Assembly (NCBI GenBank): GCA_963841435.1
Contig: CAWJCS010000002.1
Location: 1,024,001 to 1,088,000, forward strand
Source: an uncultured delta proteobacterium
Lineage (GTDB): Bacteria; Myxococcota_A; Polyangia; Polyangiales; Polyangiaceae
Length of the DNA: 64,000 nucleotides
Direction of reading: 5' to 3'
Position 1 is the stretch's first letter, and each line of letters opens with the position of its first letter. Below the pieces are notes generated by a model. The model searched no databases, was not told the origin of the DNA, and was given only the letters and a program-made list of their open reading frames with translations. Below are positions 7,075 to 15,405 of the stretch, piece by piece. Made by a program: the position numbers and the translations under genes.

Positions 7075-7383
7075 TCAGCGCCCGGGGCGAAGCGAGTCGT
7101 AGCGCACCCCGAGCGCGCCGAGGACGCCGTCGAGCAGCGCTTCGTCGCGCCGCACGATCGCGAGGTGGAGCAGGCGGGTGCGGTCGTCGGTGGCGGGTAG
7201 CGTCCCGAGCAGGGCCCGGCCCGTCGCGATCTTCGCCTCGAGGCGCTCGCGCGTGGCGCCGGCCGACAGCGACGGGGTCGCCTGCGGCTTCGAGGCGGGA
7301 GGGGCCGACGCTGAACGCTCCCGAACGGCAGACTCGTCGCTGCTGCTCGGTAGAGGGGGGCGGCTCTTTGCGGGGACGCTCAT
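7075..7383 (-). CDS. Small hypothetical protein (102 aa)
   Basis: Disordered N-terminus and helical C-terminus (RLLHLAIVRRDEALLDGVL). Preceded by a sigma54-type promoter. Confidence 0.65.
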   Translation of the reverse strand: MSVPAKSRPPLPSSSDESAVRERSASAPPASKPQATPSLSAGATRERLEAKIATGRALLGTLPATDDRTRLLHLAIVRRDEALLDGVLGALGVRYDSLRPGR

Positions 7384-7425
7384 GATTGCCTTCTGCGGAA
7401 CGCTCTAACTGCTTCAACGCTTACG

Positions 7426-7442
7426 TTGCAGTTTTCGTTCCG
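7426..7442 (-). promoter_or_regulatory. Putative sigma54 -24/-12 promoter for the 7075-7383 gene
   Basis: Minus strand reads CGGAACGAAAACTGCAA, giving exact GG-N10-GC spacing in an AT-rich intergenic patch. Confidence 0.5.
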
Positions 7443-7612
7443 ATCTATTCAAACCCGGAGGTCGCGAAGGGCTTTGGTCGGTAAGTTGCCGAAATGACCA
7501 GGTGAATTACCGGCCTGCGGGCCGGATGCCCCTCGGGCTCGCCCTTCCATTCCGCCTCGGACGGAGTGCGCGGTGTGCACCCCGTGACGCAAAAGTCACG
7601 CTCCGGCGCCAC

Positions 7613-7641
7613 TTGCCAACGATTGCTCCGGTTTCTATGGT
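7613..7641 (+). promoter_or_regulatory. Sigma70-type promoter for a leaderless fatty acid hydroxylase mRNA
   Basis: TTGCCA (7613-7618), a 17-nt spacer, then TATGGT (7636-7641), 6 nt before GTG7648. No Shine-Dalgarno. Confidence 0.6.
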
Positions 7642-7647
7642 CCGGGC

Positions 7648-8265
7648 GTGCGAGCTTGGCTTTTCATTTCTGAAAGCGCGGATTCGCCGCGGATGTTCCG
7701 CAGCGACTTCCTCGACCTATTCTCGCGCACCCATCCAGTCATCGTTCCGGTCCTCTTCGTTCCGGGCGCCGCTGTGGGCGTCTACGAGAGCATGACGGTG
7801 GGCGGTCGCGGAATCCTCACGACGCTGTTGCTCGTCATGGGCGGCTTCGTGGCGTGGACGCTCGCCGAGTATTGGCTCCACCGCCTGTTCTTCCACTGGA
7901 AGGCGCCCGGCCGCTGGGGTGAACGATTGCACTTTCTCGTGCATGGCGTTCATCACACCTGGCCGCGCGACAAATACCGTCTCGTGATGCCGCCAGCGGT
8001 GAGCATCAGCCTCTACTTCATCTTCCTCACGGTCTTCTTGCTGACGCTCGGCCCGCGCTGGGGCTGGGGCTTCCACGCGGGTTTCGTGGTCGGGTACATG
8101 TTCTACGACCTTACCCACTACTACCTACATCACTACAGTCCGCGGACGGAGTACGGCGTGCGACTCAAGAAGAATCACATGCTGCACCATTTCAAGGACC
8201 CGACGCGCCGCTTCGGCGTGTCGAACATGCTGTGGGATCGCGTGTTCGGAACGGGCCCCCGCTGA
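7648..8265 (+). CDS. Fatty acid 2-hydroxylase / sterol desaturase family (FA2H/Scs7-like)
   Basis: His boxes EYWLHRLFFH, HFLVHGVHH, YDLTHYYLHH and HMLHHF, plus RLVMPP and FGVS..WDRVFGT. Confidence 0.9.
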   Translation: MRAWLFISESADSPRMFRSDFLDLFSRTHPVIVPVLFVPGAAVGVYESMTVGGRGILTTLLLVMGGFVAWTLAEYWLHRLFFHWKAPGRWGERLHFLVHGVHHTWPRDKYRLVMPPAVSISLYFIFLTVFLLTLGPRWGWGFHAGFVVGYMFYDLTHYYLHHYSPRTEYGVRLKKNHMLHHFKDPTRRFGVSNMLWDRVFGTGPR

Positions 8266-9458: not shown

Positions 9459-9585
9459 GAAGCATTCAGCGCACCAGAGGGGCAATGGCGCGCTGCGCCA
9501 TCGGCGCGCTCCCGACGGGACGGTCCTCGCTTTGTTGGCCCTTGCAGGCCCGGCCGGGAACACTGGGTAAAAGGAGCAAAAGCCC

Positions 9586-10272
9586 ATGCAACTGGTCGTC
9601 AACGGCAGAGCGAGCGCGGTGCCCCTGTGGGTCGTGTCCAACGGGGAGGTCACCATCGGGCCGGTGCGCACGGAGCTACTCCTGCGCGGCATCCGGCATG
9701 GCCGTGTCCCGGCGGACTGTCAGGTGCGAGCCGCCGGATCGGACCAGTGGCGCCCGCTGAGCCAGCTGCGCGAGGTCGCCGCGCTCAACGGTTTGCCTGG
9801 CTCCATCCAGGCCTTCCAACTTGCCGCCGCCGAGATCGCAGAGGCGCCCGACGAGCAGGAGGTGCTGATGAGCCTGCTCCACGGCGCCGCGACCGCGACG
9901 TGCGCCGCGCGTGGTCTCATTCACCGTGTGCGCGCTCCCATCGGTCTGCCCGTGACCTCGTACGCGCTAGGCGGGCTCGACGAAGAGCTCGGCACCGTAA
10001 TCCCCTCGCATGATCCGTCGTACTCGCTGGCGCGTGCCGGTCAGACGCTCATCGGCTCGCCCGACGGCGGCCCTGCCGAGCGCGTCGTCGGTGGGCGCCT
10101 GGGGTGCGGTGCGCTCAAGGGGATCCTCATGGTCCCGGTGAGCTACGGCACCGAGGTCGCCGCCCTGCTCGAGCTCGGCCGCGAGGGCCGCCCCTTCAGG
10201 CTCGACGACGTCGATCAACTGTCGCGCCTGTGCACGCTCGCCATCGCGCGCCTGGAAGACCTCGTCGGCTGA
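9586..10272 (+). CDS. GYF_2 domain plus GAF-like domain protein
   Basis: W.V..G...GP.....L..G...G.V..D..V......W..L is a GYF_2 pattern. The C-terminal ILMVPV....VAALLELGR...PF...D is a GAF-like pattern. AAGGAG Shine-Dalgarno upstream. Confidence 0.7.
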   Translation: MQLVVNGRASAVPLWVVSNGEVTIGPVRTELLLRGIRHGRVPADCQVRAAGSDQWRPLSQLREVAALNGLPGSIQAFQLAAAEIAEAPDEQEVLMSLLHGAATATCAARGLIHRVRAPIGLPVTSYALGGLDEELGTVIPSHDPSYSLARAGQTLIGSPDGGPAERVVGGRLGCGALKGILMVPVSYGTEVAALLELGREGRPFRLDDVDQLSRLCTLAIARLEDLVG

Positions 10273-10460
10273 GTGGCCCGCTCGGGGGGCGCCGCCCCCG
10301 CCGGCGCCTCGACCACCAGTGACCCTGCGCCCTTGCCCGGGCCGGTCCGCGGACCTGTCGTCGCACCGTCACGTTTCGTCCACGTCGGATGTTTTTCAAA
10401 AGTGAAACCAAATGGCACCCAGACCACGGGTAAGTTGCTGAAATGTCGCCCTCTGAGGAC

Positions 10461-10476
10461 TGGCACGCGGTGTGCT
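10461..10476 (+). promoter_or_regulatory. Sigma54 -24/-12 promoter
   Basis: TGGCACGCGGTGTGCT: GG at 10462-10463, N10, GC at 10474-10475. Close to the TGGCACG-N4-TTGCW consensus. Confidence 0.75.
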
Positions 10477-10486
10477 GTATAGCTGC

Positions 10487-10590
10487 CTGAAGGCGGCGCC
10501 CTTGGTGCCCCCCCCTCCGCCTCGGTCGCCGCCTCCTTAATCCACTCAACGGCTCGGAGCCACCCCGCTCCGGGCTGTTGCACTTTTGTG
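10487..10590 (+). ncRNA. Candidate sigma54-dependent small RNA with Pxr-like architecture
   Basis: Begins about 12 nt after the -12 box. Hairpin GAAGGCGGCG (10489-10498) pairs with CGCCGCCTCC (10527-10536) around a C8TC loop. A second 14-bp hairpin with a T-run follows. No credible plus-strand CDS. Confidence 0.6.
10547..10588 (+). terminator. Intrinsic terminator-like hairpin
   Basis: CAACGGCTCGGAGC (10547-10560), loop CACCCC, GCTCCGGGCTGTTG (10567-10580), then CACTTTT. Confidence 0.6.
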
Positions 10591-10613
10591 GATCCGAGAA
10601 CGCCGGGCGCCGT

Positions 10614-12572
10614 TCACTCGGGCTCGTCGTCGTGCATCCAGCGCGTCAGCATGGGTGCGAGGACGAAGCAGAACGCCGCCGCAACCGCGGAAGCGATGGC
10701 GATCTTGCCGAAGACTCCACCGTAAATGCCGACGGTGGCGATTGGCAGGACGAGTCCCGCGCCGCCTTCCTCGACCCCGGTGAACTGGGAAATGATGGCG
10801 GCGAGATATTGCGAGAATGCCGTGGCCAGAAACCACGTGCCCATCACGGTGCTGACGAGCAGCCGGGGTGAGAGGCGCGTCACCATGGCAAGCCCCACGG
10901 GCGAAAGGCAAAGCTCACCCGTCGTGTGCAAGAGGTAGCCGAGCACGAGCCACCAGACGCCGACCATGCCCCGGGCGTCCGCAGTCTTCGCGCCGTACCA
11001 GAGCGCGGCGAAGCCGAGCGACAGCTGGAACAAGCCGAGGGAAAACTTCACGGGCGCGCTCGGGTCGCGCCCGCGACGGCCGAGGTTCGTCCAGAGGGCG
11101 CTCAAAACGAGACCGAAGCACAAAATGAAAACGGGATTGGTGGCCTGAAACAGGCTTGCGGGGGTCTCGTCGGCTCGGCTCGCGATCCCCATGCCGACGT
11201 TGTCCGCCGCGACGTGCCACGGAACCGTCGCTTCCGGTGCCTCGTGCGTCGCGCGGAAACGGTCGAGATCCTCGAGCGAGAAGAGCCGCTTGCCGTCGTG
11301 GTAGCCGACCTGCTCCTGGGTGGGCGTGAGCTCGATGACCTTTCCCACGTCGGCGTGGTCGAGGCGGCGTGTCTCACCGACGCGATCGACGTTGCGATCG
11401 GTAAAGTTGTTGATCGAGCTGCCGGCCTGCTCGAAAAACGACCAGAACAGGAGCGAAAAGAAAGTCAGCACGAACACCACGCCGAGCCGCTGGCGTTCGA
11501 CCTTCGATAGACCGGTCATGCGTTTGAGCAAGTAGCCGACGGCGAACAGCCCCGTGAGCGTGAGCACGAGACCGGCTGGCTTGCTGACCTCGGCGGCAAC
11601 CGTCGAAAGCAGCGGATTTTTCAGACTCTCGCGCACGCCGTCGGACAGGAGCACGAGCGGCTCGCCGTCGGCACGCAGCGGCGAGAAGCCGGAGACGAGC
11701 AGCGCGAGCAGCGGCACGGCCAGGAGCGTGGCGACGTAGACGACGCGCTCGGCCGAGAGAGGGCCGACGAGCGGCGTCGTGAGCCGCGTCGAGTCCGGTG
11801 GCGCCCCCGCGCTTTTCGGTACGCCGCCCCGAGCGAGCGCGATGGTGGCGATCACGGCGGCGATGACGAGCGCGACGGCGGCGAGCACGTTCACGGCGAC
11901 GGCCCAGCCGTTGTTCGGACGGAGCACGAGCAGCGCACCGGAAGTGGCGAGTGCGCCGCCGAGAATCATGGTCTGGGCGACGCGCGGGGGCGCGACGAAG
12001 ACGCTGAGCCCGACGAGCATGCCGATCGTCGCCAGGCCGAAACCGTAGTGCCATCCGTACGTCTCGCCGATGTAGCCGCAGAGCAGCGGCGAGAGCGTCG
12101 CGCCGAGGTTGATGCCCATGTAAAAGAGCGTGAAACCGCCGTCGCGCCGCGGGCTCCCAGCCTCGTACAAGGAGCCGACGATCGTGGAGATGTTGGGCTT
12201 GAAGAAGCCGTTGCCGGCGATGAGCAGCGCGAGCGCACCGAAGAAGGCCACGTCCTTTTCGACGGTCATCAAGAGATGTCCCGCCGCCATGAGTGCGCCG
12301 CCCAGCACCACGGCGCGCCGCGCGCCGAGCAGCCGGTCGGCGAGCATGCCGCCGAAGAACGGCGTCATGTACACGAGCGCCGTGTAGGAGCCGTACACGC
12401 CGTACGCGCGGTGGTCGTCGTAGTGTAAGAACCCCTTCAGCATGTAAAAGAGGAGCAGCGCCCGCATCCCGTAGTACGAGAAGCGCTCCCACATCTCGGC
12501 GAAGAAGAGCGTGAACAGTGCGGCGGGGTGACCGAAGAGCGTCGCCGTCTTGTCGTCTTCGGCCGCCTGCAT
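10614..12572 (-). CDS. POT/PTR family proton-dependent oligopeptide transporter
   Basis: FGHP.ALFTLFFAEMWERFSYYGMR, GNGFFKPNIST, FYMGINLG and GELCLSPVGL. Confidence 0.95.
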   Translation of the reverse strand: MQAAEDDKTATLFGHPAALFTLFFAEMWERFSYYGMRALLLFYMLKGFLHYDDHRAYGVYGSYTALVYMTPFFGGMLADRLLGARRAVVLGGALMAAGHLLMTVEKDVAFFGALALLIAGNGFFKPNISTIVGSLYEAGSPRRDGGFTLFYMGINLGATLSPLLCGYIGETYGWHYGFGLATIGMLVGLSVFVAPPRVAQTMILGGALATSGALLVLRPNNGWAVAVNVLAAVALVIAAVIATIALARGGVPKSAGAPPDSTRLTTPLVGPLSAERVVYVATLLAVPLLALLVSGFSPLRADGEPLVLLSDGVRESLKNPLLSTVAAEVSKPAGLVLTLTGLFAVGYLLKRMTGLSKVERQRLGVVFVLTFFSLLFWSFFEQAGSSINNFTDRNVDRVGETRRLDHADVGKVIELTPTQEQVGYHDGKRLFSLEDLDRFRATHEAPEATVPWHVAADNVGMGIASRADETPASLFQATNPVFILCFGLVLSALWTNLGRRGRDPSAPVKFSLGLFQLSLGFAALWYGAKTADARGMVGVWWLVLGYLLHTTGELCLSPVGLAMVTRLSPRLLVSTVMGTWFLATAFSQYLAAIISQFTGVEEGGAGLVLPIATVGIYGGVFGKIAIASAVAAAFCFVLAPMLTRWMHDDEPE

Positions 12573-12624
12573 CGAGGGGCCGAGCCTATCATCAAGCTCA
12601 CGGGGCGGGACCCCGATGCGCGTG

Positions 12625-13584
12625 TCAGACGAGGAAGCCGGTCGTTGCCTCGAGCCGGACCGCGGCGTGCGGCAGCCGATCCAGCCGGAAGCTCGCCACG
12701 AGATCGCGCGCGGAGACGGGCTCTTTGGTCTCGATGCCCACGCTCCTGGCTGCCCAGGCGACGATGCGGCGCGCGTCGACGCCGCGGCCCCTGAGCTCTC
12801 GCAGCGCGAGGTCGTGCTCGTGCTTGGCGAGGCGGCGGCCCGTCGCGTCGAGGACGAGTGGGACGTGGACCCAGCTCGGGTGGGGGAGCGAAAGGGCATT
12901 TTGCACGTGCCACTGACGCACCGCGCTCGGCAAGAGGTCTCGCCCGCGCACCACCTCGCTCACGCCTTCCGCAGCGTCGTCGACGGCGACCGCGAGCTGA
13001 TACGCCGGCGCGCCGCCGCGCCTCTGGACGAGAAAATCGCCGACCTCGCTCGCCACGTCGGTCGTGAACGGGCCGTACGAACCGTCCTCGATGGTGACGG
13101 GCCCGGGCGGAACGCGCAGGCGCACGGCGACCGGCCTGCCCGCCTGACGCTCCGCTTCCTCGATGCTCGCGAAGCGATCGCGACACGTTCCCGGGTAGCG
13201 CGGCTCGACCTCGCCTTCGTGAGGCGCTTGCGCGAGGGTCCTGAGGTCCGCTCGCGTGCAGATGCAAGGGTAGGCCATGCCGCTTTCGAGCAGCTTTTGC
13301 ACGGCATCGTCGAAGCGCTCGAGGTGCGCCGACTGCACGCTGGGCTCGCCGTCCCAATCGAGCCCGAGCCACGCGAGGTCCTCGCGCAGAGCGTCGGCGA
13401 GCTCCGGGCGGCTGCGGTCGGCGTCGAGATCCTCGATGCGCAACAGGACTCGGCCCCCCCTCGAACGCGCGTGCCACCAGGCGACGAGGAAGGTGCGAGC
13501 GTGGCCGAGGTGCAGGTAGCCGGTCGGGCTCGGCGCGAGCCGGCCGAGCAGCGCCGGTGCGTCCGCCTCGGCCTTTCGCGTCAT
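12625..13584 (-). CDS. gluQ: Glutamyl-Q tRNA(Asp) synthetase
   Basis: GRLAPSPTGYLHLG, LRIEDLD, YPC.CTR, YQLAVAVDD, VVRGRDL and RLAK. No anticodon-binding domain. Confidence 0.9.
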   Translation of the reverse strand: MTRKAEADAPALLGRLAPSPTGYLHLGHARTFLVAWWHARSRGGRVLLRIEDLDADRSRPELADALREDLAWLGLDWDGEPSVQSAHLERFDDAVQKLLESGMAYPCICTRADLRTLAQAPHEGEVEPRYPGTCRDRFASIEEAERQAGRPVAVRLRVPPGPVTIEDGSYGPFTTDVASEVGDFLVQRRGGAPAYQLAVAVDDAAEGVSEVVRGRDLLPSAVRQWHVQNALSLPHPSWVHVPLVLDATGRRLAKHEHDLALRELRGRGVDARRIVAWAARSVGIETKEPVSARDLVASFRLDRLPHAAVRLEATTGFLV

Positions 13585-14178: not shown

Positions 14179-15405
14179 TCAACGGCACTTGAGGCTCCGG
14201 GCCCAGGTGCGCCCGTCGGCGACGTACGCAATGAGCCCACCATTCGGCAGAGGCGCGAGGGAGACGCTCGCGAAGCCTGCGGCGTTGGCGACCGTCACGG
14301 TGCGGCCGCTCTGGGGCTCGGCGAGGACCAGCTCCTGGGGGGAATGGGGCGCGCTCGCCGAAGGTCGCACGAACGCGAGATGAAGCCTCTCGCACAGCGT
14401 GCTCGCGGCGGCCGGCGCGAGATCGATGCCGTTCGGGTAGTCGAAGAACGAGGCCTCGGTGTCCATGCGCGGTCTCGCGCCGAGCGCGAGCGTCGCGAGG
14501 CCGAAGTGCGTCGCGTCGCGCTCGAGCGGCACGGCCGCCCAGGCGTCGTCGCCCGCGGCGCCCGCGACCACCTCGGTGAAGGAATGGGCGGGTCCCCCGA
14601 CCCAAGCCACGACGTCCTCACCGAGCTTCGGCGAGCCGCCCTCCGTCGAAAGCGTGCGCGCGTGGAGCGGCGTCATCCCGCTCCGGCCATCGATCGAAAC
14701 GGCGAGGGCGGTGTGCTCGGAGGTCTTCGTCAGCGAGACGCTGCTCGCCCCCGCGCCCTCGGGCGTGATCTCGAAGCTCGCCCCGCGTGACGTCCAGAGC
14801 CTCGCGCGCGACGTGCCCTCGTCGTCCGGTCTGCCGAGATAGGCGACCACGGCGACGCCGTCGAGCTCGACGGCCGAGGTTCGACACGAAACACGCGCGT
14901 CGTCGGCGATCACCTCGAGCGTGCCGCCCGAAAGGGAGCGGCGCACGAGCCGCCCGTGCGACACCCAGTACGCCTGCCCGAGCGCGATGCTCGGTCCTCG
15001 CCCGACCGGCGCGAGCTCCTCGGGCCCGGCCTCGACGCTCGGGAAATGGAGCGCGGGTGGGCGGCCGCTCGTCGTCGGCGCCGCGACGAGCACGCGGTCG
15101 TCGCGCGTGACGAGCACCACGCCGGCGGGGGATGCGGTCGCGGGGCCCGCGGGGCCCACGTCGTCGAGCTCGCCGAGCGCGATTTTTGGCAGCCCACCGT
15201 CCCCGCTGAGCTCGACCTTGACGCTCGTCGGCGCGGGCTTCGGCGCCGTGACGCTGGGCGCGGGCTTCGGCGCGCCGCTCGATGGCGTCGCCCGGGCGCT
15301 TTCGCGCGGCGCCGCGCCGGCGGCCGAGGCAGCCGCGGGCGGCGCGTCCTTGCGGCTGCACGCGACGAGCGCGAAAAAAAGCGCCAGAACCGCCGGTCGG
15401 AGCAT
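14179..15405 (-). CDS. Lipoprotein, probable beta-propeller
   Basis: AAAGGAG Shine-Dalgarno, lipobox LVAC, Pro-rich linker and a beta-rich body. Confidence 0.7.
   Translation of the reverse strand: MLRPAVLALFFALVACSRKDAPPAAASAAGAAPRESARATPSSGAPKPAPSVTAPKPAPTSVKVELSGDGGLPKIALGELDDVGPAGPATASPAGVVLVTRDDRVLVAAPTTSGRPPALHFPSVEAGPEELAPVGRGPSIALGQAYWVSHGRLVRRSLSGGTLEVIADDARVSCRTSAVELDGVAVVAYLGRPDDEGTSRARLWTSRGASFEITPEGAGASSVSLTKTSEHTALAVSIDGRSGMTPLHARTLSTEGGSPKLGEDVVAWVGGPAHSFTEVVAGAAGDDAWAAVPLERDATHFGLATLALGARPRMDTEASFFDYPNGIDLAPAAASTLCERLHLAFVRPSASAPHSPQELVLAEPQSGRTVTVANAAGFASVSLAPLPNGGLIAYVADGRTWARSLKCR

Follow-up and report, generated by a model that had tools for sequence, protein, structure and literature searches.

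Analysis of a 64,000-nt stretch of the genome of an uncultured delta proteobacterium of the Polyangiaceae (contig CAWJCS010000002.1; the whole 64-kb stretch is called the window below) showed a compact transcription unit at positions 10374-10589, which is probably an autonomous small RNA (sRNA) gene of ~100-105 nt with a sigma-54-type promoter and an anti-Shine-Dalgarno mode of action. That a real sigma-54-type sRNA gene with its own predicted transcription is present here is highly probable, and the sRNA-gene interpretation of the locus is well supported by comparative sequence evidence. The principle is not new, as sigma-54-driven sRNAs and C-rich anti-Shine-Dalgarno sRNAs are both already known; what is new is an RNA family absent from the Rfam catalogue and conserved in a group of uncultured soil myxobacteria.

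The source genome (G000) has 7.78 Mb with 69% GC and is 95%-complete. The unit is hosted by a 341-bp gap between a GYF_2/GAF gene (9586-10272, + strand) and a POT-family transporter gene (10614-12899, - strand), which are convergent. A preliminary description of this DNA had proposed a self-contained unit in a 340-bp gap at this place, and all the elements that it named were present at its coordinates or at most 2 nt off, with the first hairpin folding to 10491-10534 where 10489-10536 had been given. The order of the elements is palindrome, IHF-like site, sigma-54 box, hairpin, short linker and 14-bp terminator hairpin, and their positions are as follows.

10374-10387, no strand assigned: possible distal activator site, degenerate TTTCG-tcca-CGTCG (TTCG-N4-CG(A/C)A in relatives).
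10394-10407, no strand assigned: putative proximal upstream activator site, TTTCA-aaag-TGAAA, with its centre ~86 nt before the predicted start.
10431-10444, + strand: IHF-like bending site TAAGTTGCTGAAAT, which reads as the reverse of the IHF consensus.
10461-10476, + strand: sigma-54 -24/-12 box TGGCACGCGGTGTGCT, with one mismatch to TGGCACG-N4-TTGCW.
10486-10589, + strand: predicted small RNA of ~100-105 nt, its start placed from the -12 element and its end from the T-run.
10491-10534, + strand: stem-loop 1, with a 10-nt apical loop CCCCCCCCUC at 10508-10517.
10532-10546, + strand: last bases of stem 1 and the single-stranded linker, with CCUCCUU at 10532-10538.
10547-10589, + strand: predicted intrinsic terminator, with a 14-bp stem (10547-10560 with 10567-10580), the loop CACCCC and then CACUUUUGU.

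Promoter conservation was counted in an alignment of 23 loci from the same genus, 22 of which were not cut by a contig end. The GG-N10-GC box was present in all 22 untruncated loci, with GG and TGC kept in every one, and the proximal palindrome was likewise found in 22 of 22. A TAA-N4-TTGAA-like element lay between palindrome and box in 19 loci, and the distance from palindrome start to box start was 66-67 nt in 20. The spacers between the elements varied and the elements themselves held a fixed spacing. A further palindrome of the form TTCG-N4-CG.. was found in 12 of the 22 loci, starting 18-19 nt (about two helical turns) before the start of the main palindrome; the G000 copy does not match this distal pattern, and this part of the promoter is weak in the window. 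The IHF consensus is WATCAA-N4-TTR, and from the resemblance of the intermediate element to it we infer IHF binding at this site.

The sigma-54 box was the sole match in the window to TGGCACG-N4-TTGCW with one mismatch allowed. Chance would supply 0.44 such matches in the window, and at least one turned up in 37 of 100 shuffles, so the box alone proves nothing, and the other elements, taken singly, could be chance too; the box is regarded as more than a chance match because it is conserved in relatives. The locus thus has GG and GC 10 nt apart, kept in relatives, in a genome with one rpoN gene. No sigma-70-like promoter was found in the region 9500-11500. The genome contains 703 sigma-54-like boxes and only 3 occurrences of the strict palindrome, and the box of the sRNA is the only one with the palindrome within 200 nt upstream. 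A composite pattern (TTTCA-N4-TGMAA, 40-70 nt, GGCAY-N6-TGC) gave 37 matches in 34 of 47 genus genomes against 1 for the reversed-pattern control, with matched lengths almost all of 80-82 nt. A search of 21 newly fetched loci with this pattern showed the full RNA downstream in 17 and a one-hairpin version in 2, while 1 was cut by a contig end and 1 (L210) had something else downstream.

Folding of 10485-10592 gave -53.7 kcal/mol (z = -5.8), and none of 200 shuffled sequences was as stable. The loop of stem-loop 1, CCCCCCCCUC, was unpaired in both the minimum-free-energy and the consensus folds and near-invariant across the genus; CCUCCGCC covers the 3' end of this loop and the first stem bases beyond it. 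The near-invariant C-rich tract of the RNA, GGUGCCCCCCCCUCCGCC, is the candidate seed. At the linker position of CCUCCUU, most other species of the genus carry CCUCCCUAAUCU. The terminator hairpin (10547-10580) is followed by CACTTTTGTG and was listed on the + strand by the terminator scan, with a T-run 3' of the hairpin on that strand only, and its loop is C-rich in most relatives (CUCCCCUC). RNA conservation begins 10-12 nt past the -12 element, with hairpin 1 and its loop near-invariant; in BLAST it starts at ~10485-10491 and ends at ~10590, and the flanks were unaligned.

RNAalifold on the 23 genus sequences gave two hairpins with compensatory change in 5 of 28 pairs. In a wider alignment of 43 sequences, which adds paralogues and members of other families and which was fitted to the model and is thus biased towards structure, 98.1% of cells were in standard pairs and both-side changes were seen in 23 of the 28 pairs (lower stem of hairpin 1, 8 of 8; terminator stem, 10 of 14). 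None of 500 column shuffles reached any of the five covariation measures, and in a control that slid the 3' partners by 1-3 columns, pairing fell to 32-53%. No conserved reading frame was found across the species compared, between which the C-run has indels of 1-2 nt and the linker an indel of 9 nt. A small peptide, encoded by a GUG-initiated proline-rich frame through the C-run, was rejected because of the 1- and 2-nt indels in that run.

BLAST of 10380-10600 showed a single copy in the source genome and strong matches (E at most 4e-16), confined to query positions ~106-215, in 22 of the 24 same-genus genomes compared. Two covariance models were used, R1 for the RNA and the broader R2. R1 scored the window copy at 109 bits and the next best match in the genome at 20.6 bits; the weak matches in the source genome (L039 and L040) had no sigma-54 box and were rejected as a gene-end terminator or coding sequence. 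R1 found the RNA in 45 of the 47 genus genomes, a count that includes the unpublished genome G306, and in all 16 high-quality ones. It also found the RNA in 19 of 151 genomes sampled from the order, belonging to several families, and a GG-N10-GC box lay upstream of 17 of the 18 non-self matches in the other families. R2 extended this to 35 of 151 Polyangiaceae genomes and 19 of 89 genera. All 24 examined loci of other Polyangiaceae genera had a sigma-54-type box within 600 nt upstream (reversed control, 2 of 24). The box stood directly before the R2 match in 13 of these loci and was separated from it by further C-loop hairpins in the others, and the same palindrome was found at -89 to -92 in 8.

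Outside the order, R1 gave one weak partial match and R2, over ~126 phylum genomes, two weak ones, a tRNA plus terminator and a gene-end terminator, both boxless. As both R2 matches are false, the RNA family was not found outside Polyangiales among the genomes searched. Public records with the core motif, retrieved with a degenerate pattern, were mostly metagenome-assembled genomes labelled Polyangiaceae, Polyangiales, Myxococcales or 'Sorangium', which fits the 'Polyangiales-like' label first given to this DNA; the other records (Streptomyces and others) are probably chance matches. The conservation of promoter and RNA together with the covariation of the stems also bears out the initial proposal of an unannotated small-RNA gene with an enhancer, IHF-like and -24/-12 layout, a C-rich loop and its own terminator.

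From the motifs and their conservation we infer the following series of transcription steps at this promoter. An enhancer-binding protein encoded elsewhere would bind the TTTCA-N4-TGAAA palindrome, an IHF-type protein would bend the DNA at the TAA-N4-TTGAA element, and the activator would open the sigma-54 holoenzyme complex at the -24/-12 box. Transcription would begin near 10486 and end at the intrinsic terminator near 10589, and the whole would act as a switch that couples one signal to one sRNA, like LuxO-Qrr or PxrR-Pxr. The source genome has ~40 strong Sigma54_activat matches (52 rows). None lies in the window, the nearest on the contig being ~115 kb away, and none was present in the 54 open reading frames (ORFs) flanking the genus and order loci or in the 48 flanking those of other genera (~1.5 kb per flank), in agreement with the earlier remark that no activator gene adjoins the unit. 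The composite promoter occurs about once per genome, and the activator therefore looks dedicated to the RNA. A relaxed palindrome 190 nt before an FHA-type activator gene was considered for this role; it lies inside the preceding ORF and was judged a chance match.

The predicted RNA displays C-rich tracts resembling an anti-Shine-Dalgarno sequence in the CCCCCCCCUCC loop of hairpin 1, in CCUCCUU at the stem-linker junction and in the terminator loop. These tracts would pair in trans with G-rich ribosome-binding regions of mRNAs and block their translation, and the pairing would work without Hfq. We lean slightly towards this base-pairing mechanism. The 3' end of the 16S rRNA of the source genome reads ...GGAUCACCUCCUUUCU, and CCUCCUU of the sRNA is identical to part of it; CCUCC also spans the point where the loop of hairpin 1 (...CCCCCCCCUC) passes into the stem (CGCC). 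With the loop CCCCCCCCUC unpaired in the folds and near-invariant, and CCUCCUU matching the 16S tail, the RNA has the C-rich tracts complementary to Shine-Dalgarno sequences that are expected of such sRNAs. Hfq had no match in the 95%-complete source genome, which fits GC-rich seed pairing, since this needs no chaperone. The C-rich-loop sRNAs of other bacteria pair with G-rich ribosome-binding sites.

Rfam 15 at gathering thresholds gave no match in the window, and the literature searched, with subscription-journal papers and supplements outside its scope, contained no sigma-54-dependent or C-rich-loop sRNA described for Sorangium, Polyangiaceae or Polyangiales. Among sRNAs that depend on sigma-54 and an activator are Qrr1-5 (LuxO), GlmY (GlrR with IHF), CrcZ (CbrB with IHF) and NrsZ (NtrC). 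The present unit resembles them in having an activator site, a bend and a -24/-12 box that drive a short terminator-bounded RNA, and in that the sRNA appears to be the main or only target of its activator. The half-sites of the LuxO site (TTGCA-N3-TGCAA) also resemble the palindrome, whose spacer is 4 nt and not 3. It differs from these RNAs in that there is no sequence relationship, no Rfam family was matched, and the activator is not encoded nearby. The C-rich-loop anti-Shine-Dalgarno sRNAs include RsaE/RoxS, 6C, sX13 and the 'cuckoo' RNAs ar14/NfeR1/CcsR. C-runs or CCUCC in loops and linkers, Hfq independence and multiplication of hairpins are shared with these, whereas their promoter types and lineages are other ones, and their Rfam models gave no match at the locus (E up to 10) or at 12 related loci (E up to 0.1). 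The sole Rfam signal on the sRNA was the alphaproteobacterial ar7 (RF02342) at 21.8 bits against a gathering score of 60, and ar7 on a paralogue at 28.4 bits was also the sole match over the 12 related loci. What aligns with ar7 is a hairpin whose loop is of the CCCCCUCUCC type, plus a terminator, but the phylum differs and the scores are far below 60; the two share a design of GC stem, C-rich loop and terminator, which does not show membership.

The closest parallel by lineage is Pxr. It is the one non-coding RNA singled out by name and discussed by itself in the available text of a 2021 review of myxobacterial genomics (PMC8538405). As described in the accessible sections of two papers, Pxr RNAs have sigma-54 promoters, three and sometimes two stem-loops, of which the first two are conserved and the third has a conserved 8-bp core, and an origin within Cystobacterineae (PMC5684412, PMC5568312); all pxr genes are placed there between the nla19/pxrR activator gene and an NADH dehydrogenase gene (PMC5568312). 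To the extent covered by these sources, Pxr and the RNA of the window are both myxobacterial, ~100 nt long and equipped with stable stem-loops and a sigma-54 promoter with an upstream enhancer region (here by motif and conservation). The first loop is conserved or functionally critical in both, each has paralogues under sigma-54 promoters of their own, and in both cases the host organisms are without Hfq. The differences, within the same limits, are two hairpins here in place of the usual three, a distinct synteny (GYF_2/GAF and POT genes as neighbours and no adjoining NtrC-type activator gene), and an occurrence in Polyangiales, whereas Pxr occurs in Cystobacterineae (order Myxococcales in the newer taxonomy). 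The Pxr model RF01812 gave no match over 10200-10700 at E up to 10, and its best match in the source genome, located elsewhere, reached 18 bits against a cut-off of 80; the same model over 151 phylum genomes gave no matches with the positive controls silent too, and is hence uninformative. The RNA fails the Pxr model, the synteny and the lineage, and is therefore not a Pxr member. The relation is one of analogy only, so that of the two possibilities raised in the preliminary description the analogue stands and the family relationship is not supported, with RF01812 silent at the locus and pxrR/nla19 synteny absent.

The genomic context of the unit varied among relatives. In 6 of the 23 genus loci, that of the window included, it lies between a POT gene and a GYF/GAF or tRNA-methyltransferase gene, and in 14 a divergent Peptidase_M50/CBS gene lies on one side and a same-strand Abhydrolase_11 gene 0-100 nt downstream on the other; the other 3 could not be placed. 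The M50/Abhydrolase_11 arrangement, which is also seen in other genera, probably came first. The Abhydrolase_11 gene of the source genome follows a different gene on another contig and lacks such an RNA upstream, and no close M50/CBS homologue was found in this genome. Compared with its closest relatives (G014, G005 and G013; loci L009, L010 and L025), the POT and GAF genes have the same orientation and the sRNA cassette the opposite one. As the flanking genes aligned one way and the cassette the other, the cassette was inverted in place here. The unit keeps its sequence while moving and flipping, which argues that the sRNA cassette is an autonomous gene and no by-product of its neighbours' terminators.

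These data bear on two readings in which no trans-acting RNA gene is present. One is that a chance sigma-54-like box happens to precede hairpins that terminate the convergent flanking genes. The chance expectation for the box given above and the position of the terminator hairpin, 24 nt past the POT stop codon, agree with this, but promoter and RNA have stayed together in 45 of 47 genomes, and also in other genera, through varied contexts and orientations; hairpin 1, which is no terminator, shows covariation; and a T-run comes after the hairpin on the sRNA strand alone. The reading is extremely unlikely and already contradicted by the comparative sequence data. It had been considered at the outset that the promoter and hairpins might not recur in relatives, or might serve only as terminator of the POT gene; they do recur, and the unit was also found away from POT genes and in both orientations. 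The other reading takes the RNA for a sigma-54-driven 5' leader or attenuator of Abhydrolase_11, acting in cis, with the window copy a displaced remnant without a trans role. Most genus members, and loci of other genera (L223, L236 and L239), do have Abhydrolase_11 on the same strand ~0-100 nt past the terminator. Against a leader stand the source genome and at least five others (G014, G005, G007, G013 and G017) that have no same-strand gene downstream, and conservation is equal without one (R1 scores of 92-116 bits, against 94-124 in the other genus loci). The Abhydrolase_11 gene of the source genome, on its other contig, has no such RNA; the terminator, 14 bp of GC-rich stem followed by a T-run, is strong; and the paralogues precede unrelated genes. 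A leader is accordingly judged quite improbable.

Two further alternatives accept the gene and dispute its action or its origin. The C-rich loops might bind a poly(C)- or CU-binding protein and titrate it, with no mRNA pairing, much as CsrB and RsmZ titrate CsrA through repeated GGA loops. Such sequestration would suit the paralogues of G008, G313 and G318, where a hairpin-1-like stem comes after a single sigma-54 promoter, and the tandem ~46-nt hairpins (5-7 near-identical units, each with a CCCCCC(C)UC loop) in those of G008 and G313, as well as the stricter conservation of the loop sequence compared with the stems. However, no candidate binding protein was found, the copy in the window has two hairpins only, and multi-loop C-rich sRNAs such as RsaE/RoxS, sX13 and 6C act by base pairing; the match of the C-tracts to the anti-Shine-Dalgarno sequence of the organism's own 16S rRNA also points to RNA-RNA pairing. 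Sequestration is unlikely, though less so than a cis-acting leader. A true but very divergent Pxr homologue, which would make Pxr older than the divergence of Polyangia from Myxococcia, would account for the shared phylum, the sigma-54 promoter with enhancer, the similar size, the functional first loop and the presence of paralogue families in both, as far as Pxr is covered in the accessible sources. It is hard to reconcile with the silence of RF01812 at the locus and its 18-bit best match elsewhere in the genome, with the lack of a pxrR-like gene in the 54 and 48 flanking ORFs and with the finding of nothing credible by R1 and R2 in the ~126 phylum genomes outside the order, and we consider it about as improbable as the leader.

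Several observations count against an autonomous sRNA gene with anti-Shine-Dalgarno action and temper it. In the commoner context, with Abhydrolase_11 0-100 nt away on the same strand, the RNA may also have a cis role, and 5-7 C-loop hairpins behind one promoter have the look of protein-sequestering RNAs too. The 43-sequence covariation alignment carries the bias stated above, the start, end and abundance of the RNA are predictions, and no activator could be assigned to the palindrome from the ~40 candidates. Neither motif matches nor duplex energies at candidate start sites set targets apart from background in this 69%-GC genome: GGAGGGGGG has 46 occurrences, 6 of them near a possible start codon, and the RNAduplex energies at 14,214 candidate starts fell into a smooth distribution made up mainly of GC-rich coding sequence. 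A target candidate with GGAGGGGGG just before its start is a gene of 869 aa with REC-PAS-GAF-GGDEF-EAL domains (G000:C5:1348353, L247), in which AAGGAGGGGGG, a perfect 9-nt complement of the sRNA loop, lies directly before the predicted TTG start. It was not retained, the G-tract being lost in the closest matches of relatives, whether these are orthologues or paralogues.

In its widest form, the RNA, its dedicated activator and the paralogues would make up a Polyangiales-wide signalling layer throttling mRNAs with G-rich ribosome-binding sites, the boldest version sharing ancestry with Pxr; this is a speculative extension with a small chance of being right. If it holds, each activator would feed one signal into one anti-Shine-Dalgarno RNA, in line with the differing upstream sites of the paralogues, and a master switch of the Qrr or Pxr type for a starvation or developmental transition would exist in Sorangium-type myxobacteria. 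Shared ancestry with Pxr would place the origin of developmental gating by sRNA in myxobacteria at the base of the phylum. Polyangiaceae is the lineage of Sorangium and of many natural-product producers, and the literature searched describes no small RNA for it. The unit is a clean system in which to look for a dedicated activator and its signal, in a group that is mostly uncultured and has received little study. With a promoter that occurs about once per genome, the cognate activator and signal should be findable, and the near-invariant C-rich seed makes targets testable. The variation in copy number and hairpin number is a natural series for regulator evolution, and the covariance model can serve annotation pipelines that now miss the gene in at least 19 genera.

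Many genus genomes had 2-4 R1 matches, while the source genome has its single two-hairpin copy. The 4 genus paralogues examined had their own sigma-54 boxes at the same distance and different upstream sequences, which suggests that they respond to other activators. Two paralogues (L215, G008:C137; L216, G313:C126) consist of a hairpin-1-like stem and 5-7 tandem hairpins in an RNA of roughly 350 nt; for a third (L217, G318:C3) the fetched stretch covers the first units only. A ~55-nt one-hairpin version, with a single C-loop hairpin and a T-run directly after it, was found behind the same palindrome, IHF-like site and box in L187 (G308:C320) and L212 (G019:C58). Genus g9, of another Polyangiales family with 3-5-Mb genomes, has three hairpins, each with a CCCCCC(C) loop (L043-L053), between His_Phos_1 and SspB genes. 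Here an inverted repeat of another kind (GATCATTCnTGATTC type) precedes the -24 box by only ~20 nt, a distance too short for an ordinary enhancer.

The composite-pattern locus L210 (G304:C35) gives its genome a second complete promoter of palindrome, IHF-like site and sigma-54 box, but a C-loop RNA is absent downstream. The 190 nt that follow this promoter are structured, and Pfam gave no match for the ORFs nearby; the promoter may be another target of the same activator. Within the window, a region 2.9 kb upstream of the sRNA also carries related motifs. The 17-mer GGTAAGTTGCYGAAATG, from the IHF-like site of the sRNA, occurs only twice in the 7.78 Mb with up to 2 mismatches allowed, the second time at 7480-7496, and one of the 3 strict palindromes of the genome, TTTCATTTCTGAAA, lies at 7662-7675. 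A second sRNA copy at 7386-7700 was rejected, as local alignment beyond the shared 17-mer scored 29 and 24 against a shuffle maximum of 28. A sigma-54-like box cGGAACGaaaaCTGCA on the minus strand (~7437-7452) precedes a 102-aa ORF (7075-7383, - strand) without a Pfam match. The motifs at 7386-7690 are not conserved in G007; they may mark a second site of action of the sRNA's activator or be left over from a rearrangement.

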